Notes: generated by a model not told the origin, from the letters alone. DNA of 64,000 nucleotides from Candidatus Nanoarchaeia archaeon (GCA_028714375.1 JAQTMK010000001.1:136988-200987); one strand, 5' to 3'. Positions 23,752 to 51,385 are shown, counted from the stretch's first letter. Made by a program: numbers and translations.

Positions 23752-23760
23752 ATTATGTTT

Positions 23761-30170: not shown

Positions 30171-30592
30171 TCATTAAGGACTGTGAAGTAAGCTTTTTCC
30201 CATCTTTCATTCGTGTAGTCAAATATTTTTATATAATATATCCCATCCCAGGATGAACTGGTTTTGTATTCTACAGAATGGATCTGTTTACATTTATATT
30301 CTCCGCACTTAAATGAATATCTTACTCTACACATATCATTCTCAGCTTCGCAGATTCTATAAATTCTATTTATACCGTCTGTTCCGGGTTTTATAGAAAT
30401 TTTAATTAAATCGCCTGCAGTTACAACTTTTGGATTTACTTCTAGCATAGTTTGCTCATTCACATTTGCTCCCGTTATATTGCCAAAAGTATAAGCAAGT
30501 ATTATTATTATAGTAATAATCAAGAACCCGATTACCAAGGTTTTAGGATCTTTTTTCTGCACCCCTGGCATAGATGTTTCCTTCTTTTTCAT
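30161..30592 (-). CDS. membrane-anchored small Cys-containing protein (hypothetical)
   Basis: N-terminal basic segment, one TM (LVIGFLIITIIIILAY), extracellular Cys-rich domain. Confidence 0.4.
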   Translation of the reverse strand: MKKKETSMPGVQKKDPKTLVIGFLIITIIIILAYTFGNITGANVNEQTMLEVNPKVVTAGDLIKISIKPGTDGINRIYRICEAENDMCRVRYSFKCGEYKCKQIHSVEYKTSSSWDGIYYIKIFDYTNERWEKAYFTVLNDQI

Positions 30593-30776: not shown

Positions 30777-32042
30777 ATGAATAAAACAATGAAAATTTTG
30801 AGTGCAGTATTTTTGGCAGTTGTTGCTTTAATAGCTACACCTATTGTAAGTGCTGCTCAAATAGACATCAACTCTGTTGAAGCATGTGGTATTGAATACG
30901 ACACTACAGTATCAACCATTTATGCTGAAAGAGGAGAAACATGCGACGTAATCGTTAAATTTACTGCTAACGCAGATATTGACGACCTTAAACTTAAAGC
31001 TTGGATTGGTGGTTACGAATACGATGATATTGAAGATGTAACATCAATGTTTGACGTTGAGTCAGGCGTTACATACAAGAAATCATTGAGTTTGGAATTA
31101 CCAGACGATATGGATGCTTCTGAAGACTATACAATTAATGTAGAAGTTTACAACAAGGATACAGAACTTGTTGATAAAGAATATACATTAAGAGTTAAAG
31201 AAGGCAGACATAACCTTCAGATACAGGATGTTATCTTAAGACCTGATTCAACCATTGAAGCAGGAAGATCCTTATTTGCAACTATTAGAGTTGAAAATAT
31301 GGGAGACAGAAAAGAAGAAGATATCCAAGTTAACATTGAAATTCCAGACTTAGGCGTTTCAGCAAGAGACTACATTGACGAATTATCAGCAGATGAAGAT
31401 TCTGATGCTAATGAAGACAATGAAGATGAAGAGGACTCTGCTTCAAGTGATGAAATTTACTTGAAAATACCAGAAAACGCAATGACTGGAGCTTACGATG
31501 TAATTGTTAAAGTTGTTTACTCAAGAGGACATGAAGAAGTAACAAAAACCGAAACAATTTACGTTGTTGGTAATACCCCAATAGTTGAAGAAGGAAAAGC
31601 ATTGGTAAATGTTGATGCAGCTTCAAAGTCAGCTGATGCTGGTGAAGAAGTTAGCTACAAAGTAATGATTGCTAACCTAAACGGAGCAAAACATGTTTAC
31701 ACAGTAGAAGCTACTGGTGCAGATTTGTTTGCAGACGTTGCAGTTGAACCAGGATTTGTAACAATTGAAAAAGGAAATGTTGGAGAATCCTACGTTAAAC
31801 TAAACGTTAAAGAAGGAGCTTCAGATGGTGTTCATCAATTTACCATTAAGGTAAAAGCTGATGATGTAATCGTTGCTGAAAAAACAGTTACCGTAGACGT
31901 AAATGCAGCTAGTGCTTCAAACGCAAAGAAAACATTGGCAATTGCATTCGGAATATTAGTAGTGTTGCTTATCATTATAGCACTTATCTTGGCTTTCAAT
32001 AAAATGAGAAGCTCAGATAGTGATAATGAGAGTTACTACTAA
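30777..32042 (+). CDS. cell-surface protein with CARDB-like domains and C-terminal TM anchor
   Basis: Signal peptide; beta-sandwich-like repeats (DVIVKFTANADIDD, RVENMGDRKEEDIQVNIEIPDLG); acidic linker; C-terminal TM helix followed by basic/Ser-rich tail. Confidence 0.55.
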   Translation: MNKTMKILSAVFLAVVALIATPIVSAAQIDINSVEACGIEYDTTVSTIYAERGETCDVIVKFTANADIDDLKLKAWIGGYEYDDIEDVTSMFDVESGVTYKKSLSLELPDDMDASEDYTINVEVYNKDTELVDKEYTLRVKEGRHNLQIQDVILRPDSTIEAGRSLFATIRVENMGDRKEEDIQVNIEIPDLGVSARDYIDELSADEDSDANEDNEDEEDSASSDEIYLKIPENAMTGAYDVIVKVVYSRGHEEVTKTETIYVVGNTPIVEEGKALVNVDAASKSADAGEEVSYKVMIANLNGAKHVYTVEATGADLFADVAVEPGFVTIEKGNVGESYVKLNVKEGASDGVHQFTIKVKADDVIVAEKTVTVDVNAASASNAKKTLAIAFGILVVLLIIIALILAFNKMRSSDSDNESYY

Positions 32043-32119
32043 GATAACAGGGAAATCATTTCCCTCCTTTTTCTTTTTTCACAAAAATTAAAGAAAAAGG
32101 CAAAATTTTTTCTACATCC

Positions 32120-32521
32120 ATGAAAACTTTAAATATACTTTTTGTTGAGGATGAGGCAGGATTTAATCAAACTATCACAAGAAAACTTTTAGATTATGAT
32201 TTTAAGGTGACTTCTGTTTATACATATAAAGATGCAATAAAAGAAACAAAACATTTGCAGGAAGCTAACAAGAAGAATAATGTATTAATCACAGATTTTG
32301 ATTTAGGGGAGAAAACAACTGGGATGGATATTATAAAAGAAACAAACAATTTATTCGGAAAAATTATTTTACAGACCGGTACTTCAGAATCAGCTATCCA
32401 ATATCGTTATGAAGATTATGAAGAACTTGTATCTAAATTGGGTATAAATTACATATTTAAAGCTGACTTAAGTAAAAAGATATTAGGAGTATTGGATGAG
32501 TATCTAAAATCCCAAAAATAA
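32120..32521 (+). CDS. stand-alone response-regulator receiver (CheY-like) domain protein
   Basis: ILFVEDE acidic pocket, candidate phospho-acceptor Asp in LITDFDLG, conserved Thr (ILQTGT) and Lys (YIFKADL). Confidence 0.5.
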   Translation: MKTLNILFVEDEAGFNQTITRKLLDYDFKVTSVYTYKDAIKETKHLQEANKKNNVLITDFDLGEKTTGMDIIKETNNLFGKIILQTGTSESAIQYRYEDYEELVSKLGINYIFKADLSKKILGVLDEYLKSQK

Positions 32522-32630
32522 TTCTTTATTAAGATCATACTTTAATTAATATCTATTCTAAAACCATCTTTTTAATTAAATTATATATATAAACCACCTC
32601 TGTTTATAAATTTAAAAGAGAGGTGATACG

Positions 32631-34664
32631 ATGAGGTTTGATAAATCTATAATTTTCATAACCCTATTAATTCTATTTTCGTTTTCAGTTTCAGCAGAAA
32701 TTGGAACAAGCCCTGACAATTGTAAGGGAAAAGACTTAACCGACCATATTTTTAATGATAATTTAATTACAAATGGTTGGAATAATTTATACCAGCAGAT
32801 GCAGGTTAATGATGTTCATACAATCAGCTTCAAAGGTATAAGCAATGACAATCCAGATCCAATAACAGTAACCTATTCTTTGTTTTACTGTAAAAGAGCA
32901 TGTGATTTGAACGGAGATGGAAAAGTCACTGCAGCAGATGCATGTTCAGATCATTTAGTTCTTCAACAAAAAACAGTCATAGAAGCAAATTCTAAAAAAG
33001 ATATTACTATAAATTTCAAGCCAGCTCAGGAAGGTTGTTATCAGTTAGATTGGGCTGTTGAAAAAATTGAAAACTCTCAGTGTTCTTATTTAGATAAAAC
33101 CTACTGTGAGGATTGTACATTTTTGGCTTATCTTGTAGATACTTCATGTAAGGCAGGTTCAACCCAAACAAGAAAATGTGGTTACTCTGATGTTGGAGAA
33201 TGTAGTTATGGAACTAAAACTTTAACCTGTACAGCCCAGTCACAGTTAATTGGTCCAACAAGTTATTGGAAATATGGAATTTGCATTGGAGCAACCTATC
33301 CAACAACAGAAATCTGTGACCAGAAAGACAATGACTGTGATGGTTTAATCGATGAAGACAATGTTTGTGAAGTTCCAGAATGTGAAGATGGAGAAACACA
33401 AACACAGCAATGTGGAATAACTGATGTTGGAATTTGCGAATACGGACATAAAGAAAAAATCTGTGAGAATGGCTCATGGGGAAATTGGGGTGATTGTATT
33501 GGTGCCATTAATCCTTCAACAGAAATATGTAATCAGTTAGATGATGATTGTGATGGGTTGATAGATGAAGGCGATGTTTGCCCTCCAGAAGAATGTTACA
33601 CTAATGATGACTGTGATAATGGTTTGTATTGTGATGGTGAGGAAATCTGCATAGATAACGAGTGTTATTCAGGAACAGAAATTAATTGTAATTTATACAA
33701 TATTCCAGGAATAAATACTTGCTACAATAGTCCAGACAGCAATCCATACACATTAGATTATAGAAATGCATTTACTTCAACCTGTAACGAAGATTTAGAT
33801 ATGTGTACAATTGGAAGTAGCATAATATCTCATATTTGTTATTATGGTTGTGGAGCAGAATGTATTGATTCTTGTGAAAAAACAGAATGTGATTACTTAG
33901 ATGGTTGCTATGGAAATGATTACTATGATTACAGTGATGTTTCAAACCTATGTAATTCCTGTTTATGTAGTCATAATGAATGTGGTCTTCCAGTAATTTC
34001 TGAAAATGATCCAAGATGTGAACAACCAGAATGTACAGAAGGAGATATTGATATTGTTTCCTGTGGTATGACCGATGTTGGAGAATGCTCTTATGGTCAG
34101 AAACAAAGAATATGTATTGATGAAGAATGGACAGACTGGAGCGAATGCGTTGGAAGTGTAAATCCAACAACAGAAATCTGTGACCAAAAAGACAATGACT
34201 GTGATGGTTTAATCGATGAAGACAAAGTCTGTGAAATATGTGTTCTGAATAAAACCAGACTTGATGGGGAAAATGGATTTATTGATCACATAAATGAATT
34301 TACAAATGAAGACTTTACAAAAAATAAGATTGATTTCAAGGCTTGGGTTTCAAAATCAGACAAGTACACAGGATATGTTATAGTTTCTGTGACAGGAACA
34401 ACCACAGATGGTGGAAGACTTTCTTTGAAATTAAAAGGTAAAGTAAGAAACGTCTATGAAAATACCTGTGAAGCATTTAACGTTGAAAATTCCTGGTGGA
34501 GTTTAGCTACCTACAGAGCACCAAATTCCAAGAAAACAGAAAAAATCCATCTGGATAGCATCTGGTATGAATGGAACAGGGAAACTAATTTGTTAAATGT
34601 CTACGGAATTGGTCCTGACATTGACTTTGAAATAAACAACATTGAAATTGAATCAAAGTACTGA
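32631..34664 (+). CDS. secreted Cys-rich protein with MopE-like 'putative metal-binding' repeats
   Basis: Signal peptide; three ~60-aa repeats each ending C(D/N)QKDNDCDGLIDED; many paired Cys. Confidence 0.6.
   Translation: MRFDKSIIFITLLILFSFSVSAEIGTSPDNCKGKDLTDHIFNDNLITNGWNNLYQQMQVNDVHTISFKGISNDNPDPITVTYSLFYCKRACDLNGDGKVTAADACSDHLVLQQKTVIEANSKKDITINFKPAQEGCYQLDWAVEKIENSQCSYLDKTYCEDCTFLAYLVDTSCKAGSTQTRKCGYSDVGECSYGTKTLTCTAQSQLIGPTSYWKYGICIGATYPTTEICDQKDNDCDGLIDEDNVCEVPECEDGETQTQQCGITDVGICEYGHKEKICENGSWGNWGDCIGAINPSTEICNQLDDDCDGLIDEGDVCPPEECYTNDDCDNGLYCDGEEICIDNECYSGTEINCNLYNIPGINTCYNSPDSNPYTLDYRNAFTSTCNEDLDMCTIGSSIISHICYYGCGAECIDSCEKTECDYLDGCYGNDYYDYSDVSNLCNSCLCSHNECGLPVISENDPRCEQPECTEGDIDIVSCGMTDVGECSYGQKQRICIDEEWTDWSECVGSVNPTTEICDQKDNDCDGLIDEDKVCEICVLNKTRLDGENGFIDHINEFTNEDFTKNKIDFKAWVSKSDKYTGYVIVSVTGTTTDGGRLSLKLKGKVRNVYENTCEAFNVENSWWSLATYRAPNSKKTEKIHLDSIWYEWNRETNLLNVYGIGPDIDFEINNIEIESKY
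33300..33361 (+). repeat. 62-nt intragenic direct repeat, copy 1
   Basis: CCAACAACAGAAATCTGTGACCAGAAAGACAATGACTGTGATGGTTTAATCGATGAAGACAA; one mismatch to the copy at 34164-34225. Confidence 0.8.
34164..34225 (+). repeat. 62-nt intragenic direct repeat, copy 2
   Basis: Near-identical to 33300-33361. Confidence 0.8.
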
Positions 34665-34718
34665 TTCTTTTTTCTTTTTTTTTATAATACACATATACAC
34701 TTAGTAAATCAAAAAAAG

Positions 34719-34734
34719 GCCCGATTAAACGGGC
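34719..34734. terminator. short GC hairpin between convergent genes
   Basis: GCCCG-ATTAAA-CGGGC flanked by A/T runs. Confidence 0.3.
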
Positions 34735-34755
34735 TCTAATTTAAACAGGAATGAA

Positions 34756-35112
34756 TCATTTCATCTTGAGAACTTTCTTAGCTTCTTTAAGAAAGTTTTC
34801 AATACTGTCTTCTACCTGTATCCCGTGGAGTCCGTTTCCAGAATTGTTTTTGCAGGGTCCGAAAGTTTCTATTTCATCTCCCCCAATTGAAATTTGAAGA
34901 TAAAGATCCTCGAATGGCTTTTCGGTTCCAATATCTCCCAAAGGAAAATAAATTTCAATTAGGGAATCCTCTGGAATTATCCGAGGTTCTAATACTCCAG
35001 TGATGTATTTGAGAAAATTGTTAATCTTCTCCTGAGGCGAGCTGAGATTTTTTAAGAATATCATAACATCTTCTGGATAACAAACATTCTCCCGATAGAT
35101 TTTATATCCCAT
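34756..35112 (-). CDS. hypothetical protein (compositionally atypical)
   Basis: 118 aa; GC and codon usage (CCG, TCC, GGG) higher than genome background. Confidence 0.45.
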   Translation of the reverse strand: MGYKIYRENVCYPEDVMIFLKNLSSPQEKINNFLKYITGVLEPRIIPEDSLIEIYFPLGDIGTEKPFEDLYLQISIGGDEIETFGPCKNNSGNGLHGIQVEDSIENFLKEAKKVLKMK

Positions 35113-35127
35113 ATTTCCTCCTTGTAA

Positions 35128-35592
35128 TTATTTTAGAAATGCTTCCATCTCTTCTTTTGCGTTATCGGTAATTTCCAATTGGATAGAATGATCAGTTAAA
35201 AGCTGGGGAAGATCATCTTTTTTGAGGATAAAGATCCACAATTTTGGATATGCTCGCCAAGATCGAGGATATCCATTTCCATTTGCTTTCATCCATATGA
35301 CGTGTTGATTATTGGTAAGGAAGGTTTGTATCGAAAAAGATATCAAATTCATATCTTCCACCTCTTCACTTAGGATATGTTTAATCATATTTTTGAATTT
35401 GATGCCTTCCTCCCCTTCCTCTGAAACCTTAAATGAGATAACCGAGAATCGTCTTAAATTTTCGATCGGATTATCTAAAAGCCTTGATTGTTGGTCAGTT
35501 TCTACAACTTTCAAATTCAGCAAGCAGTCAACGACAGCCTTACTAAGACGGATTACCTCAGTTGTTTGAGAAACTTTTAAATTTACACTCAT
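35128..35592 (-). CDS. hypothetical protein (compositionally atypical)
   Basis: 154 aa; co-oriented with and 15 nt upstream of 34756-35112. Confidence 0.45.
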   Translation of the reverse strand: MSVNLKVSQTTEVIRLSKAVVDCLLNLKVVETDQQSRLLDNPIENLRRFSVISFKVSEEGEEGIKFKNMIKHILSEEVEDMNLISFSIQTFLTNNQHVIWMKANGNGYPRSWRAYPKLWIFILKKDDLPQLLTDHSIQLEITDNAKEEMEAFLK

Positions 35593-35727
35593 AAAATTCT
35601 CCTTTCTTCCACGTTTTCCGTGGATTTTAAAATTTAGAAGATGGTTCTAACTACAACCTCTTTTACCAACCAGAACTCCGTTTTGTTAAGGTTTTAGCAA
35701 ACTATTTTAAGTTTATAAATCTTATTA

Positions 35728-36093
35728 TTGGTTAAAATGGAAGACATCGAAGAAAGATTAGAAGGATTAATCGAGGAAATAAACACAAAACAAATCCTTG
35801 TTATAGTTGAAGGCAAGAAAGATCTTAAAGCCCTGGAAGAACTGGGAATAGAAAAAATATACCCAATAAACAGAAAACCAATATACAAAGTTATAGATGA
35901 AATCAACGAAAAAGAAGTTTTAATCTTAACAGATTTGGATCAAACAGGAAAAGAACTTTATTCAGTTTTAAAGTCCGGATTACAGAATAAAGGCATAAAA
36001 ATTAACAATAATCTGAGGAATTTTTTATTCAAAACAGAGATAAGACAGATAGAAGGAATAACCCATTATATCCTCAAAAAGCAAGGTTTATAA
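35728..36093 (+). CDS. small Toprim-domain protein (COG1658-like)
   Basis: ILVIVEGKKDLKAL ... VLILTDLDQTGKEL: Toprim Glu plus DxD motif in a roughly 120-aa protein. Confidence 0.55.
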   Translation: MVKMEDIEERLEGLIEEINTKQILVIVEGKKDLKALEELGIEKIYPINRKPIYKVIDEINEKEVLILTDLDQTGKELYSVLKSGLQNKGIKINNNLRNFLFKTEIRQIEGITHYILKKQGL

Positions 36094-36247
36094 AGCATTA
36101 CTCCAGTAAAAGGCTCTGATTGAATTAAATTTGTATTTTTGTCTTGATAGAGGGTATTCTATTTGTTTTTCTGAAACTCATGGAAAACCCGGAAGAAGAC
36201 AAAAATAGTTTTTCTATCGAAGAAATCTAAAAGAAGGAGATTAAAAA

Positions 36248-36541
36248 ATGGAAAAAAGTGGAGACCCCCTCAGTTCAAACAATGGATTTAACATTAGTGT
36301 GATACATGGTTTTAAAAACCAAATCGTTACCATTGAAGATACTCAAACCAGACAGAAGGTTTCTGGTACAATCAAGGAATTTAAAAGACTTATCTTGGGA
36401 AAAAGTTCTAAAATAAGGGTTGAGCAGAACAACGGTTATAAGAGAATCATTGGAGTTGGTGAATCTAACTATCTTGAAGTTGAATCACCTAGAATGGATA
36501 TTATGTTAAAAAAACTTAAAGGAACATTAAACCTACCTTGA
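36248..36541 (+). CDS. hypothetical protein
   Basis: 97 aa; AAGGAG ribosome-binding site; first of three tightly linked small genes. Confidence 0.4.
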   Translation: MEKSGDPLSSNNGFNISVIHGFKNQIVTIEDTQTRQKVSGTIKEFKRLILGKSSKIRVEQNNGYKRIIGVGESNYLEVESPRMDIMLKKLKGTLNLP

Positions 36542-36972
36542 AAGGAGAAACTATGAGAAGAATACGTTCTCTATTAAACTCAGAGGTTAAGGAAAATGTG
36601 AAAAACATAATCAAAATCTTGGAAGAGGATCCAACAAAATTTAAGACTCTCAAGGAACTAATCTCTATAAAGTTTTTCCTTTTCTTTCGATATGTGAGAT
36701 ATGTTAAAATCTCTATCACCGAAATATCTAGGAAAAAGAAAGAGAAACAAGTTCCAGAAAAAATGATCAAAGTTGTTTTAGTAAATTCTTTTTTTCACAA
36801 GAAATATTCTCCAGTTTTGTTGTTCCCAACTTATGGAAATTATATCAAGATTGAAAAGGAGATTCGAATTGATGCCAATCAGTTAATATGTTACCTTCAG
36901 CATAAGAAGATTCTCTCAAGATTAAGGGGATTGTTTAATTTTAAAAAACGGAGGAAGAATGGTAAAACCTAA
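36538..36972 (+). CDS. hypothetical basic protein
   Basis: 144 aa; ATGA-type overlap with the upstream gene; Lys/Arg-rich. Confidence 0.4.
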   Translation: MKGETMRRIRSLLNSEVKENVKNIIKILEEDPTKFKTLKELISIKFFLFFRYVRYVKISITEISRKKKEKQVPEKMIKVVLVNSFFHKKYSPVLLFPTYGNYIKIEKEIRIDANQLICYLQHKKILSRLRGLFNFKKRRKNGKT

Positions 36973-37002
36973 AACTTTAAACTCAAAGAAAGGAGAGGGA
37001 GA

Positions 37003-37377
37003 ATGATAATTACTGAATCAGGAAGAAAAATACCTATGGATGAAGCCCTACAAAAAACAATTATTAGAGGAGGAGCTTTATGGGACCTTATTGCAGCATT
37101 CATTGAATACAAGAAAGATCTCCGCATCGAGGTGAGAGATGACAAAAGAAATGAAGTCCCACAAGATAAAGAAGACATATGTTTTATTCTTACAAACAGA
37201 AAAACAGATGAGGGTATAATTGTAAGGGCTAAGAATGCTTTAACATATTTAAATGTTAAGTCTTCAATACCTCAACAGGAAATAAACCCCCAAGAAGTGC
37301 TGGGATTTATCAGAGACTACATTAAAAAGACTGATGATCATCTTATTGAAGTGGAAAAATTATTCAATCTGATATGA
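37003..37377 (+). CDS. hypothetical protein
   Basis: 124 aa; AGGAGAGGGAGA ribosome-binding site; followed by a strong terminator. Confidence 0.4.
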   Translation: MIITESGRKIPMDEALQKTIIRGGALWDLIAAFIEYKKDLRIEVRDDKRNEVPQDKEDICFILTNRKTDEGIIVRAKNALTYLNVKSSIPQQEINPQEVLGFIRDYIKKTDDHLIEVEKLFNLI

Positions 37378-37395
37378 TTCCAGGGTAATCCTCCA

Positions 37396-37427
37396 AAGGT
37401 TAGATTAATTTCTAACCTTGTTTTTTA
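37396..37427 (+). terminator. intrinsic-type terminator (perfect 9-bp hairpin plus T-tract)
   Basis: AAGGTTAGA-TTAATT-TCTAACCTT followed by GTTTTTTATT. Confidence 0.6.
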
Positions 37428-37924
37428 TTATTAGAGTATATACATCTATTATTAACAACCAGGATATTATTGCAGAGTTTTCTAATCACTTCAAAGTAAG
37501 TTGTTGATGTTACTTGAATTTAATTACCACTTTGTGTGCGTAATAGTTCTTTTAAAAGCATACTACTTTTTTTGAATATATAATCTTATTCTGATATTAA
37601 TTGGAGTTTTGCGCCCTTAAGCCTTGAATTGTTATTTCCCGAGGAGTTTTTTTATTTTACGCACCATTTCATAGTAAACTTTTTTTCACTCCTTTTCGTT
37701 CTTCTAAAATATATTTGATTTCTGAATAATGTTTAAATAAAAACTTTGGAGATTATGAGCTATTAATTTCAGAGTGACAACTTAGAATTGACTACAGAGA
37801 CAGAAAATACAACTTGGCAAATTCGCAAGTTGGATTTGCGCAAACCCAACATCAAACGTGTTGGCGTTAATGAAAAAGAAAAAGAAAAAGAGGGCTGATA
37901 AAAAACAATGGAGGAATATAGAAA

Positions 37925-39007
37925 ATGAAAAAGCTATTAGCAATATTGGCTGTTTTAGTTTTAGCTGTTAGCCCAATCCTAGCAAATAGTATAGGAACTG
38001 GTATTGGCGTTGACATTGAAACTGAAGACTTTGTTCCAGAAATCTGGATGTGTGATGGTAGAGCTGTTTACGATGATAACATCGAACCAGGAAGAAACGG
38101 AGCTCCATCATTGAGTGAAAGATTAAACAACTATGCTTTCGAAGGAGAGCAACTTGAATATGACGTATTAGTCTTGGATAAAAACGGAATCAACAAAATT
38201 GAAGACGTTTACATGACAATTGGAACCTCACAAGGTACAGGAAACGACATTGAAGTTAACTGTGTATTAAATGAACTTGGACCAGAAGTTGATTCAAGTT
38301 GTAATGCATACATTGGAGAAGAAAAAGTAGAAGCTAAAAACTTTGATAACTGGAATCAGATTGCAGCAATGTACACATGTACTTTGACCGTTGAAACTCC
38401 AGAATCAATGTACGGTGAATACTGGGTAACAGCAGAAGTTACTGACCTAGATGGTTTGCAAAACTCAGTTGATGAAAACGAATACTGGTTCTTCAACCCA
38501 GTCATTGCATTGACTGTTGAAGGAGAATTAGCATTTGAAAACGTAAGACCAGGAACAAACTCCTACTCTGAAACACTTTTAGTAGGAAACGATGCTGATG
38601 AAGGATCTGGTGTTACATTAGATATGTACATCTCAGGAACCAACTTCTACGATTCAAGTAGCTCAGGTGCAATGTGCCCAACAAGTAACGTTTTAGAATT
38701 GGATAACTTCGCTTACTACGCAGTAAACGGAGCTTACACAACTGCAACCGTATCTGGAGTAAACCCAGCATGGGATCCAGATGATGAAGGTTACGTAGGA
38801 ATACCAGAAGGTAATACAATCAACCAGGCTAAAGAAATTGTCGGAACCGAGTTCTTCGGAGATGCAGGTTCATCCTACAATAACTGGAGAGGAAACACAT
38901 TAACTCCAGGTGCTGAAATGGCATTGACTTTCAGATTGGCATTACCAGAACCATGTAATGGTGACTTCGATACAGGTACCATTTACTTCTGGGGAGAAGC
39001 TATCTAA
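37925..39007 (+). CDS. secreted protein (hypothetical)
   Basis: Signal peptide MKKLLAILAVLVLAVSPILA; GGAGG ribosome-binding site. Confidence 0.55.
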   Translation: MKKLLAILAVLVLAVSPILANSIGTGIGVDIETEDFVPEIWMCDGRAVYDDNIEPGRNGAPSLSERLNNYAFEGEQLEYDVLVLDKNGINKIEDVYMTIGTSQGTGNDIEVNCVLNELGPEVDSSCNAYIGEEKVEAKNFDNWNQIAAMYTCTLTVETPESMYGEYWVTAEVTDLDGLQNSVDENEYWFFNPVIALTVEGELAFENVRPGTNSYSETLLVGNDADEGSGVTLDMYISGTNFYDSSSSGAMCPTSNVLELDNFAYYAVNGAYTTATVSGVNPAWDPDDEGYVGIPEGNTINQAKEIVGTEFFGDAGSSYNNWRGNTLTPGAEMALTFRLALPEPCNGDFDTGTIYFWGEAI

Positions 39008-39089
39008 GTAAAGGAAAATTTTTTTCCTTTTTTTATTTTATTTTTAAAAACTTAAAGTGGTGATGAAAGAAAGGGAGAACTATCAAAAA

Positions 39090-40190: not shown

Positions 40191-40233
40191 TTTGCTGTGA
40201 TTTAATTTCAAAACCATGGAGGCCCCAATAAAA

Positions 40234-43191: not shown

Positions 43192-43341
43192 ACCTCTTCT
43201 TTTTTTATCTATTTTTAATTAATACTATCAAATAATAGAATTTACGATAATATCTATTTCTTTCCATAAATGTTTATATATAATCTTGGAGTGGTATTAA
43301 CTTAAAAGTGGTGTTATAAATTAAATACAGGGAGTGGTAAA

Positions 43342-43998
43342 ATGAGGAAAATAACAGTATTCATATTGGTTTTAGCATTGCTTTTGATATTTCCAGTAAG
43401 CGCAAAACTTACGGGACAAGCTAGAGGACAGGCTGTAATCAACGTTGACGTTGATGAAGGTAGCACAGAAGTAATCTCAAGAACTGTTTGGGTTAAGAAT
43501 GTAAATGATATTCCGGTTAATGTCGCAATTATTGCAATAGATGATATTGAAGACAGAACAGAAATAGAAGAACCTTCTTTTATACTTCAGCCAGGCCAGG
43601 AAAAAACAGTTAAATATTTATTGAAAATTTCCCAGCCAGGAAATTATTATGGAAAATTAAATATTGGTTTTTCTCCAGCAGATGGTTCTAAAGAAAATGG
43701 AGTAGGAATCTCATTAGCTATAACCGTTATTGCAGATGGTGAGGGTGAAGAATTTGTAAGTCCAGAACCTAATACTGAAGAAATCCCAGAAGATACAGAA
43801 GAAACTCCAGAAGACACAACCGATATCCCTCAGGAAGAAGACACAACTGATGGAGAAGGAGTAGATGTATTCGGAGGAGGACAAAATCCTGTAACACCTA
43901 AAACAAACATAAATTGGCCACTCATAATTTTCATAGGTTTACTTTTAATCGTAATCGCAGCAGGGGTGTTTGCTTTTTTAAGGGGAGGAAAAAAATGA
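43342..43998 (+). CDS. secreted protein with C-terminal TM anchor and basic tail
   Basis: Signal peptide; acidic PEDTEETPEDT linker; C-terminus WPLIIFIGLLLIVIAAGVFAFLRGGKK. Confidence 0.5.
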   Translation: MRKITVFILVLALLLIFPVSAKLTGQARGQAVINVDVDEGSTEVISRTVWVKNVNDIPVNVAIIAIDDIEDRTEIEEPSFILQPGQEKTVKYLLKISQPGNYYGKLNIGFSPADGSKENGVGISLAITVIADGEGEEFVSPEPNTEEIPEDTEETPEDTTDIPQEEDTTDGEGVDVFGGGQNPVTPKTNINWPLIIFIGLLLIVIAAGVFAFLRGGKK

Positions 43999-46900
43999 AG
44001 AAAGTAGTTTTTTTATTTGCTTTGTTATTAACAGTTTCATGTGTAAGTGCTTGGGATGTAGCTTATGTGGTTACTAACCCATCAACTGCAGCACAGGAAC
44101 CAATAACAGTGTTGGAAAACGAGGGATATAATGTAGAAGTTATTGATGATTCTGCATTACTAACAACAAATTTCAGTAATTATGATTTAATTGTTGTTGC
44201 AGATCAGAACTTTCCATATCCAGAAAGAATTCCAGTAACCTCCCACAGTACAGTAATTTTAAGTTCTAATGATGGTGATGTTTTAACTTGGGGTCTAAGT
44301 ACCTCAGTTGCAGATCAGACAAGCAGTCAACCAGAAAAAGTAGTTAATAATGATCCTACCAGTCCAATAACAGAAGGACTGCCCTCTGAAATTCAGGTTT
44401 ATACAACTGGAGGAGTTTCAGCAGGCCTGTCATACTTACCTTCTTCAGATAAAGCTGGAAAAATGAAGGTTATTGCTTCAACTTATTTCAGCAGCAATAT
44501 AAATGATGGAATAATTGCAACAGCATCTCCAGGAGATGTTTTAAAAATCTACAATAGTGGTTGGAAATACACAACCGTAAATTCAAGAATATGTTATTTT
44601 GGTATTAATACTCCAGCATACTGGACAAGCGATGCAGAAACATTATTCATTAATTGTGCAACATGGTCAGCATTAGGAGTAGATAATGATAATGATGGTT
44701 TCTACTCAGATGAAGACTGTGATGATACAAACGCAGATATTAATCCAGATGCAGAAGAAACCTGTAACGGAGTAGATGATAATTGTGATTTAATTATCGA
44801 TGAAGAAAACTCATTAGGATGTACTGATTATTACTATGATTTTGATCAGGATACTTATGGAGTATTCTTATCTAAGTGTTTATGTTCACCAAACGCATTT
44901 TATGATTCAGAAACAAACGATGACTGTAATGATAACAATATAAATATACATCCAGACGCACAGGAATTGTGTAATGGAATAGACGATAGTTGTGATGATA
45001 TCATTGATGAAGACTTAATTGAACCTTTGTCAGACAACCAAAAAGGAATCTGTAAAAATTCTGTAAAAATCTGTGAAGGAACTTCAGGATGGACAAATCC
45101 AGATTACACAGAACTGGAAGATTATGAAAATCCAGAATTAAGTTGTGATGGTTTAGATAATAACTGTGACGGAACAGTTGATGAAGATTTAGCAACAACT
45201 TATTATAAAGATTTAGATGAAGATACCTATGGAAGTAAAACAGTAACAATCCAGTCTTGTGATATTGTGGATGGTTATGTTGAAAACAATGATGATTGTA
45301 ATGATAATAATGCAGATATAAGTCCAGACGGAATTGAAGAATGTAATGGTATTGATGACAACTGTGACGGAGCCATCGATGAAGATGATATCTGTGAAAT
45401 AACAATTTATTATTGTGATGCAGATGCAGATTTACATTTAAGCTTGACACAATCAGGAACTTGTGATACCTATAACTGTGTTCCAACAGGATGTTCAACA
45501 ACACCCGGAGATGATTGTAATGACCATAATGCAAATATGTATTTAGGAAAAGCAGAAACCTGTGATGGTCTGGACAATGACTGTGATTATGTTATTGATG
45601 ATGGTGTAAAAACAACTTATTATCAGGATAAGGATGGAGATCTTTACGGAAATTCAGGAGTAACCAAACAGGCATGTTCTGCTCCAACAGGATATTTATT
45701 GGATAAGACAGATTGTAATGATAACTTTGCTACAATTCACCCAGGAGCAACAGAAACCTGTAATGGAATTGACGATGATTGTGATGGTTTGATTGATGAG
45801 GGAGGAGTTTGTGCAGTAAAGACTTACTATTGTGATGATGATTCAGACAGTTATCTAAGCTTAGATATCTCAGGAACATGTAACACCTATAATTGTGTTC
45901 CAGAAGACTGTTCAGAAACCAGCGGAACAGATTGTAACGACGATGATTCAGATATGTATCCAGGAAACATAGAAGTTTGTGATAACTTAGACAATGACTG
46001 TGATGGTTTAATTGATGAATCTCTTACACAAATAACAACTTGTGGACTAGGAGAATGTTCAGACAACACAGGAATAGAAACTTGTTCAGCAGGAGAATGG
46101 ATTAATGATACTTGTGATCCTTATGCTGGAGCAGTAGCTGAGACTTGTGATGGTTTAGATAACAACTGTGATGGTGAAACAGATGAAGGAGTAACTACAG
46201 AATATTATGAAGATTCAGATAATGATACCTATGGAGATGCATTAAGCATTTTAGATGCATGTTCTCTTCCAGCAGGTTACTCTGTAAATAATCTAGATTG
46301 TGATGATTCAAATGCAAATATGTATCCAGGAAATCCAGAAGTTTGTGATGGTGATGATAATGATTGTGATGGAACAATTGATGAAGATTTATCTGCACCA
46401 TTAAATACAAACCAAAATGGAGTATGTTTTGAATCAAATCAAACCTGTCAGGGAGAATTAGGATGGATCGATACTTATTCAACAATCTCAACTTATCAAG
46501 AAACAGAAGAAGCCTGTGACAGTTTAGATAATGATTGTGATGGAATAGTTGATGATGGTGTTAAAACAACATTCTATGAAGATTCAGATAATGATACTTA
46601 TGGAAATGCAACAAGCTCACAGGATGTATGTACTAAACCAACAGGTTATGTTTTAGATGATACTGATTGTGATGATAGTCAAAATACAATTTATCCTGGA
46701 GCTACAGAAGTTCCATACGATTCAATTGACCAAGATTGTAGTGGTGCTGATTTAACTGATGTGGATGCAGACGGATATGATTATACTACAGATTGCAATG
46801 ATAATGATCCAGATGTAAATCCTGGAGAAACAGAATCCTGTAACACAATTGATGATGATTGTGACGGAACAATTGATGAAGAAGATTCAACAGGATGTTC

Positions 46901-48476
46901 AGTATATTATTACGATGAAGATGCTGATGCCTATGGTACAAATGATGACAAATGTTTATGTGCAATAACTGGATATTATACAGCCTCAGTAAATGGAGAC
47001 TGTGATGATACAGCAGCTTCAATTAACCCAGGAGTTTCAGAAATCATCTACAATACAATAGATGATGATTGTAATTCACATACATTAGATGATGATTTAG
47101 ACCAGGATGGATATAATCATGATGTAGATTGTGATGAAACTAATAATAAGATTCATCCAGGTGCAACAGAGATTCCATACAATGGAATAGACGAAAATTG
47201 TAATGGATGGGATTTGGTTGATGTTGATAATGATGGTTACAGTGCTCCGCAAGTTGGAGGAACAGATTGTAACGATAATAATCCAGCAATAAATCCAGGA
47301 GTTTTAGAGATTCCATACGATGGAATCGATAATGATTGTAATCCATTAACTTTGGATGAAGATTTAGATCAGGATGGCTACAACCATAATGTAGATTGTG
47401 ATGATTTAGATCCATTAGTGCACCCAGGAGCAACAGAAATTCCAAATAATGGAAAAGATGATGATTGTAATTCACATACATTAGATAATGATGCAGATCA
47501 GGATGGAATTCAGGATCCAGATGATAATTGTGTAATTCTTTACAATCCAAATCAGGAAGATCAGGACCATGACGGAATTGGAGATGTTTGTGATTCAGAC
47601 ATAGATGGCGATGGAATATTAAACGAAGATGATAATTGTATAACAACTCCAAACCCAGACCAATTAGATATTGACTCAGATGGAATTGGAGATGTCTGTG
47701 ATTTGGATAAAGATGGAGATGGAATAAATAATAATAAAGATAATTGTCAGAGCATCTTTAACCCAGAACAGGAAGATGTAGATCATGATGGTTTAGGAGA
47801 TGTCTGTGATGATGATAACGATAATGATGGAATTCCAGACAGCGAAGATAACTGTTCAGATGTTTACAATCCAGATCAGTTAGATACAGATTCAGACGGT
47901 TTGGGAGATAAATGTGATGACGATGATGATAACGATGGTCTTGATGACCACGACGATAACTGTCCAATAAATTACAACCCAGGCCAGGAAGACAGAGACA
48001 GCGATAGGAAAGGAGACGTCTGTGATGTAGATTGGGATAATGATAGTGTTCCAGATGCATCAGATAACTGTCCATATATTAAAAACAGAGACCAAGCCGA
48101 TATAGACAAAGACGGAATTGGAAACGTGTGTGATGATGTAGACGGTAGAATAAAAGAAATAATCAGCCATGAATTTAGCCTAAGCTCAGTTTCATTGGAA
48201 GATGAAAAAATAAATCCTGGTGAAAACCTTGACTTATATGTAAAATTAAAGAACAGAGGAAACCAAGACGAAGACGGTATTAAAGTTCAGGCAACAATAA
48301 TGGAGACTGGCCAAATATCAACTCCAAGTTATGTTGACCTGGAAAAAGGAGAGTCTCAGTCAACATGGATAACCATAAAAACAACCAAAATAAAACCAGG
48401 AACATACACATTAAGAGTAATGGCAGAAAACAGCAAAGAACATGATGTAGCTTACCTAACCTTTAAGGTTATGTAA
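43995..48476 (+). CDS. giant secreted protein (1493 aa): MopE-like Cys-rich metal-binding repeats, thrombospondin type-3 Ca-binding repeats, CARDB-like C-terminal domain
   Basis: Start at MKKVVFLFALLLTVSCVSA (AGGGGAGG ribosome-binding site; ATGA overlap with the upstream gene). At least 15 repeats of the type DCDDTNADINPDAEETCNGVDDNCD(G)LIDE; about 10 TSP3-like repeats (DNCxxxxNPDQxDxDxDGxGDxCD); C-terminal INPGENLDLYVKLKNRGNQDEDGIKV beta-sandwich. Confidence 0.65.
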   Translation: MKKVVFLFALLLTVSCVSAWDVAYVVTNPSTAAQEPITVLENEGYNVEVIDDSALLTTNFSNYDLIVVADQNFPYPERIPVTSHSTVILSSNDGDVLTWGLSTSVADQTSSQPEKVVNNDPTSPITEGLPSEIQVYTTGGVSAGLSYLPSSDKAGKMKVIASTYFSSNINDGIIATASPGDVLKIYNSGWKYTTVNSRICYFGINTPAYWTSDAETLFINCATWSALGVDNDNDGFYSDEDCDDTNADINPDAEETCNGVDDNCDLIIDEENSLGCTDYYYDFDQDTYGVFLSKCLCSPNAFYDSETNDDCNDNNINIHPDAQELCNGIDDSCDDIIDEDLIEPLSDNQKGICKNSVKICEGTSGWTNPDYTELEDYENPELSCDGLDNNCDGTVDEDLATTYYKDLDEDTYGSKTVTIQSCDIVDGYVENNDDCNDNNADISPDGIEECNGIDDNCDGAIDEDDICEITIYYCDADADLHLSLTQSGTCDTYNCVPTGCSTTPGDDCNDHNANMYLGKAETCDGLDNDCDYVIDDGVKTTYYQDKDGDLYGNSGVTKQACSAPTGYLLDKTDCNDNFATIHPGATETCNGIDDDCDGLIDEGGVCAVKTYYCDDDSDSYLSLDISGTCNTYNCVPEDCSETSGTDCNDDDSDMYPGNIEVCDNLDNDCDGLIDESLTQITTCGLGECSDNTGIETCSAGEWINDTCDPYAGAVAETCDGLDNNCDGETDEGVTTEYYEDSDNDTYGDALSILDACSLPAGYSVNNLDCDDSNANMYPGNPEVCDGDDNDCDGTIDEDLSAPLNTNQNGVCFESNQTCQGELGWIDTYSTISTYQETEEACDSLDNDCDGIVDDGVKTTFYEDSDNDTYGNATSSQDVCTKPTGYVLDDTDCDDSQNTIYPGATEVPYDSIDQDCSGADLTDVDADGYDYTTDCNDNDPDVNPGETESCNTIDDDCDGTIDEEDSTGCSVYYYDEDADAYGTNDDKCLCAITGYYTASVNGDCDDTAASINPGVSEIIYNTIDDDCNSHTLDDDLDQDGYNHDVDCDETNNKIHPGATEIPYNGIDENCNGWDLVDVDNDGYSAPQVGGTDCNDNNPAINPGVLEIPYDGIDNDCNPLTLDEDLDQDGYNHNVDCDDLDPLVHPGATEIPNNGKDDDCNSHTLDNDADQDGIQDPDDNCVILYNPNQEDQDHDGIGDVCDSDIDGDGILNEDDNCITTPNPDQLDIDSDGIGDVCDLDKDGDGINNNKDNCQSIFNPEQEDVDHDGLGDVCDDDNDNDGIPDSEDNCSDVYNPDQLDTDSDGLGDKCDDDDDNDGLDDHDDNCPINYNPGQEDRDSDRKGDVCDVDWDNDSVPDASDNCPYIKNRDQADIDKDGIGNVCDDVDGRIKEIISHEFSLSSVSLEDEKINPGENLDLYVKLKNRGNQDEDGIKVQATIMETGQISTPSYVDLEKGESQSTWITIKTTKIKPGTYTLRVMAENSKEHDVAYLTFKVM

Positions 48477-48487
48477 GTTTTATTTTT

Positions 48488-49645
48488 TTATTTAATATTT
48501 TTATTTTCTTTTACAAATACTAACATTATAAATGCTAAAACAGCTAAACCCATTGAAAAATAAAATGGAGCCATAAAATCTATTTTATCCCATAACAATC
48601 CGGCAATCAGCGAAGCTGGTAAGGCAACTATACCCAGTAACATCTGATACCCGCCTAAAACACTTGCTTTGTAATTTTCAGGAGCCAATTCAGAAACAAA
48701 TGTTTTTTGCACTGGATCTAATGCTCCCCTATGTAATCCATATAAAACAAATGCAAGAATAATTCCTACATAACTGTTAAGGAAAATAAAACTCAAACAA
48801 ACCAAAATCCACAAAACAAAAGATAAACCTAAAACATTCTTTCTTCCTATCTTGTCAGCCATTTTACCAAATGGTAATGCAGATACTGAAGCAAATGCTG
48901 CAAAGATTAAATATAAGACAGAAACTAATCCAACACTAAACCCAAAATCTTTTGCAAATACCAATAAGAATGAATAGCTGAAAGCACCCAAAGAAAAAAT
49001 ACTTCCTAAAACTAAGAATAACCTTAGATTATTATTTATATCTTTGAAATGAATTCCTCTATAGATCTTGATATGATTTGATTTTTTTTCCTTTATAATA
49101 AATATTATTAACAAAACAGCAATCAAAGATGGAACTGCAGCAACTAAAAATAATTTTTTATATCCAAGTAAACCAAATAACAAAATGCTTGCTATAACAC
49201 CACATAATCCCCCTAATTTGTCCATTGCTTCTAAAATTCCAAAACTCTTGCCTCTATCCTTATGATTTGAAACATTGGCGATTAAAGCATCTCTTGGAGC
49301 ATCTCTCATTTTTCCAAATCTGTCTAAAATTTTAAAGGGGATTAAGTGTTGCCACATTGTGGAAAAAGCATACCCAACTCTTGAAAAAGAAGCAAATAAA
49401 TATCCTAACCAGACAAATATCTTTCTTTTCTTGATTCTGTCTGAAATATAACCCGATAAAGCCTGAGATATTGAGACTAAAGCATTTCCCAATCCATCTA
49501 TTAATCCCAAAGTAGCCATGCTTGCCCCCAAAAATGTTGTGACAAACAAAGGCCAGATAGGAGTTATCATATCTGAACCTAGATCATTTAAGAAAGAAGC
49601 CAAAGAAAAAGTTCTAATTACCCTCTTTTTGTATTTCTTGTCCAT
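48488..49645 (-). CDS. major facilitator superfamily (MFS) transporter
   Basis: 12-TM pattern; MFS loop motif GYISDRIKKRK between TM2 and TM3. Confidence 0.8.
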   Translation of the reverse strand: MDKKYKKRVIRTFSLASFLNDLGSDMITPIWPLFVTTFLGASMATLGLIDGLGNALVSISQALSGYISDRIKKRKIFVWLGYLFASFSRVGYAFSTMWQHLIPFKILDRFGKMRDAPRDALIANVSNHKDRGKSFGILEAMDKLGGLCGVIASILLFGLLGYKKLFLVAAVPSLIAVLLIIFIIKEKKSNHIKIYRGIHFKDINNNLRLFLVLGSIFSLGAFSYSFLLVFAKDFGFSVGLVSVLYLIFAAFASVSALPFGKMADKIGRKNVLGLSFVLWILVCLSFIFLNSYVGIILAFVLYGLHRGALDPVQKTFVSELAPENYKASVLGGYQMLLGIVALPASLIAGLLWDKIDFMAPFYFSMGLAVLAFIMLVFVKENKNIK

Positions 49646-49801
49646 TAAGGCTTAAAAGTAACATTTCCTATTCAAATAGTTTTTGTATTTTTCACTAAAA
49701 ACTTCAATGAAATCAACCTTTTTTGAACCTATGGAAAACCTTATAAACCCGTTCCAACTCACAGATGGTAACAAAATTACGTAATTTGGAGGATTAAAAA
49801 A

Positions 49802-51385
49802 ATGAGAAAGCTAGCAATAATGTTTTTAGCAGTATTTGTTGTTTTGGCTGGTATAGCTTCAGCAACAATAGTTAACACTGTTGACGCTAACGATGCATAT
49901 GTAGACACAGGCATTGATGGGTGTACAAGTGATAGTTGCTATATATTTTACGAAGACGTAACTGGGAAAATTTCTTTAACCACAGATTTTACAGGAACAA
50001 TCGCATGGGATTTAACTGGTAATCCATCTTGGTTAAGCAAATCATCTGCAATAGGAACCACAATATATCTAACAGGGACTCCTTCAAGTGATGATTATGA
50101 TTTTAAGGGAACCACTATTACAGTTACAGATGGTAATGTAAGTGAGACCTACTCAATCAGAGTTTACCCAGACTTCTGTGATAGAGAAGATGATGACCTT
50201 AAAGTATCAAATAGTTATGTATCAATTGGAAGTTTAGACTTCGATGATGATGACTATACAATTTTTGATAAGGTAGATACTTCAATTGAAGATGTAAATG
50301 CAGAAAAAGAAGATCTTGTTGATGTAAATGCACAGGTATGCTTATATAATGTAAATTCAAATGAAGAGATTGATTGTTGGAGTGCTTCAGAAGAAATTGA
50401 CATTGATGAAGATGAATCAGAAGATTTTGACATCAGCTTTGAGATTCCAAACGTGGAAGAAATTGGGGATAAAAAAGATTACAAACTCTTTGCAGTTATC
50501 CAAGCAGATGCAGACGATTCAGAAATACCAGTTTGTATGTTTGAATCCGAAGATATAAATATTGAAAGGGAAAAGTACGATGTATCAATTACAGATGCAT
50601 TCATAAACCCAACTTCAGTAAAAGCAGGAGAAACATTTGATGTAACTGTTGATTTTGAAAACGTTGGAAGTAAAGACGATGATAGTGTATATGTTGTTGT
50701 TAAGGAAAATACATTAGGACTTAACGAAAAGTCAACAACTTATGACCTAGAAAATTACGATGGTAATGACAACAGCGCTACAGCAAGATTTACTTTAAGT
50801 GTTCCAGAAGATGCAGCTAATAAACAATACTCAATTGAAGTTATCGTTTACTTTGATGATGGAGACGGTACTGATTCAGAGTTTGTTATGTTGGAAGTTA
50901 AAGGACAAAGCACAGCAACACCAGTAGTTCCAAAAGACTCAATTTTATTGAGTGCAGGGGAAGCAGTTGCTGAAGGTAATGCATTTAGCTTGCCAGTTAC
51001 AGTAACAAACAAAGCTGAAAGTCAGGAATTAAGTGTTGAATTAACCAATTTAGATGATTGGGCAACAGCTGGAAGTGCTAAAACTCAGTTACTTGACAAA
51101 GATCAGAGTACAACTTTCTACTTTTACATAACACCTAATGAAGGAATTACTGGAACCAGAACAGCTACAATAAACGTAAGATCTGAATCTGGAAACATTT
51201 TGAAAACACAGTCAGTTTCCTTGAAGTTAGGAGAAGAAGTAGTTGAAGAAGATGTAAACGTGAGCGGAGGCATCAAAGACTTTTTCAGTAACAATAGCAA
51301 AGTCTTATGGATAATTGGAGACATAGTCTTGATTATTCTGGCTGTAGTATTGCTAAAGTTCTTGTTTACTAAGAAGAAGAAATAA
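49802..51385 (+). CDS. cell-surface protein with CARDB-like domains and C-terminal TM anchor plus KKKK tail
   Basis: Signal peptide; acidic regions; CARDB-like INPTSVKAGETFDVTVDFENVGSKDDDSVYVVVKE; C-terminus VLWIIGDIVLIILAVVLLKFLFTKKKK. Confidence 0.55.
   Translation: MRKLAIMFLAVFVVLAGIASATIVNTVDANDAYVDTGIDGCTSDSCYIFYEDVTGKISLTTDFTGTIAWDLTGNPSWLSKSSAIGTTIYLTGTPSSDDYDFKGTTITVTDGNVSETYSIRVYPDFCDREDDDLKVSNSYVSIGSLDFDDDDYTIFDKVDTSIEDVNAEKEDLVDVNAQVCLYNVNSNEEIDCWSASEEIDIDEDESEDFDISFEIPNVEEIGDKKDYKLFAVIQADADDSEIPVCMFESEDINIEREKYDVSITDAFINPTSVKAGETFDVTVDFENVGSKDDDSVYVVVKENTLGLNEKSTTYDLENYDGNDNSATARFTLSVPEDAANKQYSIEVIVYFDDGDGTDSEFVMLEVKGQSTATPVVPKDSILLSAGEAVAEGNAFSLPVTVTNKAESQELSVELTNLDDWATAGSAKTQLLDKDQSTTFYFYITPNEGITGTRTATINVRSESGNILKTQSVSLKLGEEVVEEDVNVSGGIKDFFSNNSKVLWIIGDIVLIILAVVLLKFLFTKKKK

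Follow-up and report, generated by a model that had tools for sequence, protein, structure and literature searches.

Few DPANN archaea have been cultured, and a life in attachment to other cells is presumed for them; their surface proteins are obvious candidates for host contact. We are interested here in a 64,000-nucleotide stretch of DNA from Candidatus Nanoarchaeia archaeon (GCA_028714375.1, JAQTMK010000001.1:136988-200987), hereafter the window, in which positions 30777-51385 are largely filled with genes for predicted secreted and surface proteins. We refer to each gene and its product by the start position. The initial annotation regarded this surface locus as an accessory, fast-evolving island for the cell envelope or for host interaction. 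The locus thus raises the question of whether its genes were acquired and differ between related genomes or are inherited together with the chromosome around them, and whether any of the products could organize the others. On balance, we consider it probable that the locus is a vertically inherited envelope neighbourhood within the core chromosome and not an acquired island. It is an ordinary archaeal envelope locus holding one uncharacterised, highly conserved family, represented by the 37925 protein.

Inheritance of the surface locus

The GC content is low across the window (~31%), and core archaeal genes are located on the flanks of the surface locus, namely those for eIF2alpha, an eRF1/Pelota-type protein, RadA, and the leucyl- and alanyl-tRNA synthetases (LeuRS and AlaRS). 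Because the LeuRS has a 62-68% sequence identity to those of metagenome-assembled genomes (MAGs) of Pacearchaeota, Woesearchaeota, and "Nanoarchaeota", it identifies the host as a low-GC, Pacearchaeota-like DPANN archaeon. We compared the gene order in three related genomes, the LeuRS of the nearest relatives being 67-68% identical. GCA_028713535.1 keeps the identical order from the Toprim gene onwards, with 37925, 39090, 40234, 43342, 43995, the gene of a major facilitator superfamily (MFS) transporter, and 49802. The MFS gene occupies the same place and orientation (minus strand), and the orthologue of 40234 sits in the same position with an identity of 41%. Two extra genes follow 49802, after which LeuRS, a helix-turn-helix (HTH) gene, and a 422-residue gene appear as in the window. 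The orthologues of 30161 (minus strand), 30777, and 32631 are found together on another contig of this genome and in GCA_028714095.1, where a Toprim gene lies 7 kb further on. The 30161 orthologue retains its divergent position beside the 30777 orthologue in two relatives (56% and 51% identity), and the 32631 orthologue directly follows that of 30777 in two relatives (48-50% identity). In the third assembly (Logan SRR24270828), a gene for a giant protein is followed by a 49802 orthologue and then by LeuRS.

The order is kept in GCA_028713535.1 and partly so in the other two genomes, in which both halves of the locus can be recognised. Between the relatives, the surface genes vary neither in presence nor in order, and the variable content consists of the receiver gene 32120 and small cytoplasmic open reading frames (ORFs). 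Both relatives lack the receiver gene between their orthologues of 30777 and 32631, and at this position it is lineage-specific. At the syntenic place, the relatives have a homologue of the Toprim gene only and not of the ORFs at 34756-35592 and 36248-37377.

The GC content at third codon positions averages 0.228 in the surface genes and 0.238 in 16 other genes of the window, and the slightly higher total GC of the surface genes arises at the first and second codon positions. No tRNA gene flanks the span, the only one in the window being located at 12298, and we found neither an integrase or transposase domain in any ORF of the span nor direct repeats at its borders. All direct repeats of ≥40 nt within the span are in-frame MopE and TSP3 repeats. 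Diversification of the type known from diversity-generating retroelements was considered and rejected, since there is no template/variable repeat pair and the repeats are in-frame protein repeats only. No reverse transcriptase turned up among the ORFs scanned, which did not include those at 62012-63717.

The surface genes are 41-70% identical to those of the nearest relative, compared with 68-85% for the non-surface neighbours (Table 1). Over the related genomes, the non-surface neighbours are 66-85% identical. In this comparison, they diverge faster on average than their neighbours, yet they are orthologous and syntenic. Could the span be an accessory, rapidly varying island for the envelope or for host interaction, with a content that changes from one related genome to another? 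Such an island would account for the identities of only 41-56% among the orthologues of 39090, 40234, 43342, 43995, 49802, and 32631, for the very few detectable homologues of 49802, and for distant loci at which other large proteins (Laminin_G_3, LTD, BNR, DUF4215) follow the conserved 37925/39090 pair. Raised non-synonymous variation has also been documented for hypothetical surface proteins of Nanoarchaeota (PMC6142677). However, the gene order and content kept in the nearest relatives largely refute this explanation, which also finds neither a compositional signal nor mobility genes, tRNA, or diversity-generating repeats in the span. Moreover, 37925 and 30777 rank with the better conserved genes, and what varies is the receiver gene and the ORFs for non-surface proteins. 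We therefore consider an accessory island highly unlikely. What stands of the initial annotation is the concentration of envelope proteins, possibly for host interaction, and the faster divergence of the surface genes; the accessory character and the expected variability in order and content do not. Loci in relatives are largely conserved, orthologous, and syntenic, with a surface gene divergence still above that of the neighbours.

The conserved 37925 family and its partner

The 37925 protein belongs to no Pfam, NCBIfam, or PHROG family, and a profile search did not find any sequence match in the PDB. The homologues number at least 1,121, and the best 120 of them show 55-67% identity over the full length and originate from Pacearchaeota, Woesearchaeota, Nanoarchaeia, and one MAG labelled as Aenigmarchaeota. 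Among 52 aligned family sequences, ~90 positions are invariant, including all six cysteines and a C-terminal G-E-A, and these positions are rich in Asp, Glu, Asn, Gly, and Cys. The sequence conservation is at the level of LeuRS, a core translation enzyme. The AlphaFold2 model (pLDDT 85) is an all-β structure of consecutive sandwiches that is well folded from residue ~31 onwards, and its fold matches are restricted to generic immunoglobulin (Ig), carbohydrate-binding module, or adhesin folds. We also considered a remote kinship to the 30777 family and rejected it, as hhalign returned a probability of 50% covering one Ig domain only.

The position of the domain within proteins is almost fixed. 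An exhaustive profile search gave 405 family representatives at 50% clustering. The profile is covered to its end in 137 of them, and in 121 of these the domain ends at most three residues from the protein C-terminus. The family tail follows the pattern [FIL][WY][GA]E[AP][IV], which reads FWGEAI in the window protein. Of these 121 proteins, 23 bear N-terminal extensions of 100 to 2,650 residues, made of Beta_helix/NosD with TSP_3, MopE, or DUF4215 repeats, i.e., the kinds of domains encoded by separate genes beside 37925 in the window.

Paralogues and relatives that are longer and end in the domain (442-3,050 residues) were also observed at the loci L158 (12369-17559), L104 (12310-13926), and L110 (4628-5956), and as proteins P0274, P0301, P0266, and P0283, their N-terminal parts being Cys-rich DUF4215, MopE, β-helix, or TSP3 sequences. 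Some loci hold two to three tandem copies of the 37925 domain.

The second constant feature is the neighbouring gene. We collected the neighbourhoods of 37925 homologues at 80 metagenome and five genome loci, 55 of which had enough sequence, and in 52 of these a 39090/40234-type gene starts <400 nt downstream of the 37925 homologue. The other surface genes recur less often in the 55 loci (40234-type 16, 43342-like 8, 43995-like 8, and 49802-like 3), the 49802-type genes lying within 10 kb of the 37925 homologue at the distant loci L098, L105, and L155. The 39090-type partners have cleavable signal peptides with ASA or VSA sites, a conserved Cys-rich N-terminal domain, and three Ig domains. From the gene arrangements compared, the conserved groups are 30777 with 32631, 37925 with 39090 (and 40234), and 43342 with 43995.

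The strong conservation and the acidic, amide, glycine, and cysteine residues among the invariant positions could be those of a conserved secreted enzyme or a ligand-binding protein acting, for instance, on glycans or peptides of the host's or the cell's own surface, with the neighbouring Ig-repeat proteins as unrelated cargo of the same export route. Yet no catalytic domain was found in any library (Pfam, NCBIfam, PHROG, and PDB), the model consists only of β-sandwiches, and the C-terminal placement behind adhesin-type passengers, together with the strict pairing, fits a structural or docking role better. We regard an enzyme or binding protein as quite unlikely.

The family is also marked by an avoidance of N-glycosylation sites. 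N-x-S/T sequons number 0.12 per protein against 2.76 expected, a 23-fold depletion, and 46 of the 52 sequences have none. The 30777 family shows 0.66 against 2.33 expected per protein, whereas sequons are not depleted in the 39090-type partners (3.77 observed and 4.46 expected). The near-total avoidance argues for selection against glycosylation of the 37925 proteins.

A small, secreted, unanchored, very conserved, and sequon-free β-sandwich protein is consistent with tight subunit packing, as could be the case if 37925 were the major subunit of a non-type-IV fibre polymerizing via strand exchange, with 39090 and 40234 as minor or tip adhesive subunits. Sulfolobus threads, TasA-like archaeal bundling pili, and chaperone-usher pili could serve as models. 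The T-rich tract after the 37925 stop codon, preceding the genes of Ig-repeat proteins, suits this explanation, and strand exchange could involve the invariant C-terminal strand. On the other hand, up to 2,650 residues of other domains replace the segment before residue ~30-38 in the fused relatives, and such N-terminal fusions make an N-terminal donor strand unlikely. The modelled monomer is well folded with no obviously missing strand, the cluster contains no chaperone-, usher-, or sortase-like gene, and no pilin fold can be assigned from such weak fold matches. A fibre of this kind therefore seems unlikely to us. As for the region following the stop codons, terminator hairpins after 37925 and 30777 were rejected because they are no better than in shuffled sequences (z of -1.25 and -1.69), and the oligo-T tracts remain a weak hint.

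We tentatively propose that the 37925 domain may be a conserved module for surface assembly or attachment. A docking unit is suggested by the "Rosetta stone" fusions and by the strictly C-terminal position of the domain. The joint occurrence of sequon avoidance and strong conservation points the same way, as it fits extensive interfaces between proteins. It is possible, and somewhat more doubtful, that 37925 and its 39090-type partner together constitute a new envelope scaffold or docking unit of the sampled Pacearchaeota, Woesearchaeota, and Nanoarchaeia MAGs that carries interchangeable adhesin modules.

Composition of the locus and its surroundings

All ORFs listed in the initial annotation are present (Table 1). 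For 39090, 40234, and 43995, the choice of internal ATG starts is supported by the classic signal peptide that each start gives and by a GGAGG-like motif a few bases upstream. A hydrophobicity scan revealed a signal-like N-terminal segment in each of the eight proteins (30777, 32631, 37925, 39090, 40234, 43342, 43995, and 49802) and a C-terminal transmembrane (TM) anchor in 30777, 43342, and 49802. Ten signal-peptide genes had been counted previously, of which only eight had been listed, and it is these eight that carry the segment. They fill 15,165 of the 20,609 nt (74%) between 30777 and 51385, in agreement with the earlier description of the span as dominated by secreted and surface proteins. 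The surface genes are not contiguous, being interrupted by small non-secreted ORFs (34756-37377) and by the MFS gene. A ninth envelope protein is 30161, which has a TM anchor at the N-terminus and matches neither Pfam nor NCBIfam. Apart from Toprim, the intervening small ORFs have no PHROG or Pfam family, and neither do sub-domains of 32631, 43342, 39090, and 49802.

Table 1. Genes of the surface locus and neighbouring genes, with the identity of their products to those of GCA_028713535.1.
Feature	Position	Strand	Characteristics	Identity (%)
30161, small TM-anchored protein, 143 residues, 4 Cys	30161-30592	minus	hydrophobic segment at residues 15-41; divergent from 30777	56
30777, anchored tandem β-sandwich protein, 421 residues	30777-32042	plus	signal peptide, Ig-like domains, acidic linker, C-terminal TM	70
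32120, probable single-domain receiver (CheY-like)	32120-32521	plus	Response_reg below gathering score	
32631, secreted Cys-rich protein, 677 residues, 54 Cys, without anchor	32631-34664	plus	signal-like N-terminus, three MopE-type motifs	48
Small cytoplasmic ORFs	34756-35112, 35128-35592	minus	no signal or TM segments	
Toprim protein	35728-36093	plus	Toprim_4/Toprim Pfam match; no signal or TM	68
Small cytoplasmic ORFs	36248-36541, 36538-36972, 37003-37377	plus	no signal or TM segments	
37925, secreted all-β protein, 360 residues, without anchor	37925-39007	plus	signal peptide, six invariant Cys, FWGEAI tail	67
39090, secreted protein, 366 residues	39090-40190	plus	signal peptide, Cys-rich N-domain, three Big_13-type Ig domains	49
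40234, large secreted protein, 985 residues	40234-43191	plus	NosD-like right-handed β-helix, Ig domains, C-terminal three-domain block	41
43342, small anchored protein, 218 residues	43342-43998	plus	hydrophobic segments at residues 1-25 and 188-216	56
43995, giant secreted protein, 1,493 residues, 83 Cys, 24% Asp+Glu, without anchor	43995-48476	plus	MopE, TSP_3, CARDB-like	55
MFS transporter (non-surface)	48488-49645	minus	Pfam MFS_1, 162.6 bits; syntenic landmark inside the locus	75
49802, putative S-layer protein, Pacearchaeota type, 527 residues	49802-51385	plus	signal peptide, four β-sandwiches, linker, C-terminal TM, KKKK tail	55
LeuRS				68
HTH gene				79
Gene 55402				85

Three pairs of proteins in the locus share modules, and the sharing is real and well above chance in their sequences. 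The 39090 and 40234 proteins are 34% identical over 274 residues (E = 4e-39), and their common block consists of three colinear Big_13-type domains, the first and third being of one type. The homology noted previously is therefore genuine but extends over a three-domain block and not over two modules; the peptides formerly paired had matched domain 3 of 39090 with domain 1 of 40234. MopE-like repeats are shared by 32631 and 43995 as proposed, since Cu-binding_MopE (PF11617) is above its gathering score in both, with 42 bits over three stretches and 358 bits over 16 stretches, respectively. The 43995 protein also exceeds the gathering score of TSP_3 (PF02412), with 118 bits over five stretches. 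The third pair, 30777 and 49802, is related both by BLAST (E = 2e-8) and by profile comparison with hhalign (probability 99.2%, E = 2e-19, over 344 columns including the TM anchor). The homology and the C-terminal TM helices of the two proteins agree with the initial annotation, whereas the Pfam matches to CARDB, the domain that it had named, are below threshold.

Concerning the anchored proteins, 49802 matches the NCBIfam model NF033506 at 144.9 bits (E 3.5e-42, cutoff 110) over model positions 150-619 of 627, and NCBI names an identical protein "putative S-layer protein". Its AlphaFold model (pLDDT 83) shows a signal helix, four β-sandwiches, a disordered linker, and a TM helix at 499-526, and the structural matches are limited to single domains of CARDB, FixG, or Ig type. 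With 77.2 bits, 30777 remains below the cutoff of 110; by these profile scores it is a superfamily relative and shorter paralogue of 49802 and not a member of NF033506. The 30777 protein matches Pfam FixG_C at 30.4 bits, and an oligo-T tract follows its stop codon. We found 232 homologues of 30777; among the 120 listed, identities are 36-70% and lengths 408-451 residues, and many match PF10633 or PF11614. In 43342, the signal peptide is followed by a β domain of ~110 residues, an acidic Pro/Glu/Thr linker, and a C-terminal TM segment ending in basic residues. No family match was found for 43342 in Pfam, NCBIfam, or PHROGs, and hhalign detected nothing between it and the 30777 family. The 43342 stop codon overlaps the start of 43995 (ATGA; junction sequence GAGGAAAAAAATGAAG), and the 4-nt overlap is kept at locus L082 of a relative, in which the 43342 orthologue is 56% identical. 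The overlap predicts that the two genes are translationally coupled.

Among the unanchored proteins, 39090 has Pfam matches to Glucodextran_B and Big_13. The 40234 protein matches Beta_helix (57.6 bits), NosD (26.9 bits), and Big_13, as well as TIGR04247 in part, and carries 17 N-glycosylation sequons. The repeats of 43995 are visible at the DNA level, and its C-terminal part resembles CARDB (22.5 bits). The N-terminal domain of 43995 (~residues 20-250), which is conserved at loci L085 and L086, has no significant family and no significant match in a PDB sequence search. In 32631, two 74-nt segments with the MopE motif (33298-33371 and 34162-34235) share 96% DNA identity and a third copy 74%, suggesting recent internal duplication or gene conversion.

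The gene 32120 was described previously as an orphan receiver-domain gene. It reaches 24.6 bits (E = 2.9e-5) with Response_reg (PF00072) over profile positions 1-83 of 111 and falls short of the gathering score (30.2). There are also weak matches to NCBIfam response regulators and to PHROG families of unknown function, and no PDB sequence match. By eye, the motifs FVEDE, LITDFD, QTGTS, and FKAD hold the acidic pair, Asp, Thr, and Lys of receivers in place. The product is probably a single-domain receiver, and the window contains no kinase to pair with it; the earlier description is thus probable, with a domain score that stays under its threshold.

Several other observations were made in the window and its relatives. 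The LeuRS of the nearest relative (L167 15395-18409) has 1,004 residues compared with 865 in the window, and the single-piece alignment covers only residues 237-865 of the window protein, which indicates an insertion or a rearrangement in the N-terminal part of the former. Six consecutive small ORFs at 20908-24129 (minus strand) have N-termini of the type IV prepilin kind (class III signal), in which K/R-G precedes a long hydrophobic stretch (MNKRGEVF..., MKKRGEMQLF..., MNKRGLMTLKF...). A larger ORF has SKRGELEGGVAIATFVLLL; the set also includes 5001-6284 (minus strand), and a gene for a Peptidase_A24 prepilin peptidase is located at 10326-11174 (plus strand). By these signals, a pilin-like gene cluster lies 7-10 kb upstream of the surface locus. 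An AT-rich motif of ~41 nt (TTAAATTAAAATAAAAAAGAAATATATAAA...) occurs at 23332-23372, 23715-23755, and 4032-4072, upstream of genes of the pilin-like cluster; two of the copies are 95% identical, and the motif is possibly a shared promoter element. The minus-strand gene at 13595-14665 encodes an ATP-grasp protein of the D-Ala-D-Ala ligase type (Dala_Dala_lig_C, 96.7 bits) in an archaeon, which could have a bearing on peptide ligation or an unusual wall polymer in this lineage. Adjoining the only tRNA gene of the window, the ORF at 12536-13291 (plus strand) encodes a metallo-β-lactamase-fold protein with a match to Pfam "Anti-Pycsar Apyc1" (69 against a cutoff of 50 bits), which may simply be an RNase Z-like enzyme.

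A working model and known envelope systems

In the inherited envelope neighbourhood that we favour, all large products would be exported by the Sec pathway, as predicted from their signal-like N-termini. The anchored β-sandwich proteins 49802, 30777, and 43342 would form or tether a wall layer. The predicted disulfide-rich proteins 32631, 37925, 39090, 40234, and 43995, with domains of the calcium-binding or adhesin type, have no anchor, so they would be either held by protein-protein contacts or released; retention through contacts with the anchored proteins is what we propose. The 37925 domain would self-associate or dock onto 39090 or the anchored proteins, serving as a base for projecting variable adhesin-type domains, which are encoded by separate neighbouring genes here and are fused N-terminally in other genomes. 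The exposed, glycosylatable, and faster-evolving 40234, 43995, and 49802 would likely be the parts that meet the environment or a host cell.

Several points weigh against this model. Synteny is limited to three relatives, and the 10-kb flanks of LeuRS in 14 DPANN species representatives (LeuRS identity 62-68%) contain no surface gene or other neighbour from the window. This last test is uninformative on the locus because general synteny decays at the distance of species representatives, and synteny was detected only via homologues of 37925, 49802, and 30777. The S-layer role of NF033506 is a curator's label, and the literature searched holds no characterised S-layer or envelope component for Pacearchaeota or Woesearchaeota. 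Archaeal S-layer proteins of the classical kind usually combine poor conservation with heavy glycosylation, and 37925 is the opposite in both respects.

If the docking role of 37925 is correct, the domain would correspond, in archaea, to a common "surface display" anchor and could be used to find host-contact proteins in uncultured DPANN lineages. Being very conserved, strictly paired with a 39090-type gene, C-terminal, and averse to glycosylation sites, it is a tractable first target. If 37925 is neither a scaffold nor a docking unit, the locus is a typical archaeal envelope neighbourhood. The conserved 37925/39090 pair is the one element of the locus that deserves follow-up, and part of the surface repertoire here consists of stable inherited gene pairs and not of a shuffled island.

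The MopE, TSP3, and β-helix proteins of the locus are ordinary members of widespread repeat families. The Myxococcus protein MtsC (NF047638) partially matches 43995, with 200 bits over the TSP3 region and a cutoff of 350, but 43995 comes from another domain of life, lacks MYXO-CTERM, and differs in its N-terminal domain, which is unrelated, and in its CARDB-like C-terminus. The 40234 protein resembles archaeal "adhesin-like proteins" with a β-helix and Ig repeats in that its β-helix is likewise followed by Ig domains and it has many sequons. It is not an orthologue of NosD, scoring 63 bits against the TIGR04247 cutoff of 300, and no nos operon accompanies it. In a Foldseek search, the 37925 model best matched the MSCRAMMs ClfB and SdrD, the C-terminal domains of antigen I/II, and RbmA (E 4e-5 to 1e-3). 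Like MSCRAMM-type adhesins, 37925 is a secreted surface protein with two to three consecutive β-sandwiches; however, TM-scores of 0.14-0.31, identities of ≤13%, the lack of a sortase signal, and no evidence of a ligand trench or isopeptide bonds set it apart, and the likeness of the model to bacterial adhesins is one of architecture only.

The closest parallels for the anchored proteins are S-layer systems. The NF033506 family ("PACE-CTERM-PROT, putative S-layer protein"), for which we found no publication in the literature searched, shares with 49802 the signal peptide, tandem β-sandwiches, C-terminal TM helix, and basic tail, while 30777 is without the N-terminal ~160 residues. Among characterised S-layers, SlaB forms a membrane-anchored stalk beneath the SlaA canopy in Sulfolobales, and the S-layer glycoprotein csg of Haloferax volcanii (7ptp) is built from tandem Ig domains. 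Neither SlaA/SlaB nor csg has a sequence relationship to the locus proteins, in which a plain TM helix takes the place of the PGF-CTERM lipid anchor. SlaA and csg are large proteins, heavily glycosylated and variable, whereas 37925 is small, very conserved, and sequon-free. Nevertheless, the logic of an anchored stalk with a free partner, as in SlaB and SlaA, resembles the one that the genes of this locus suggest.

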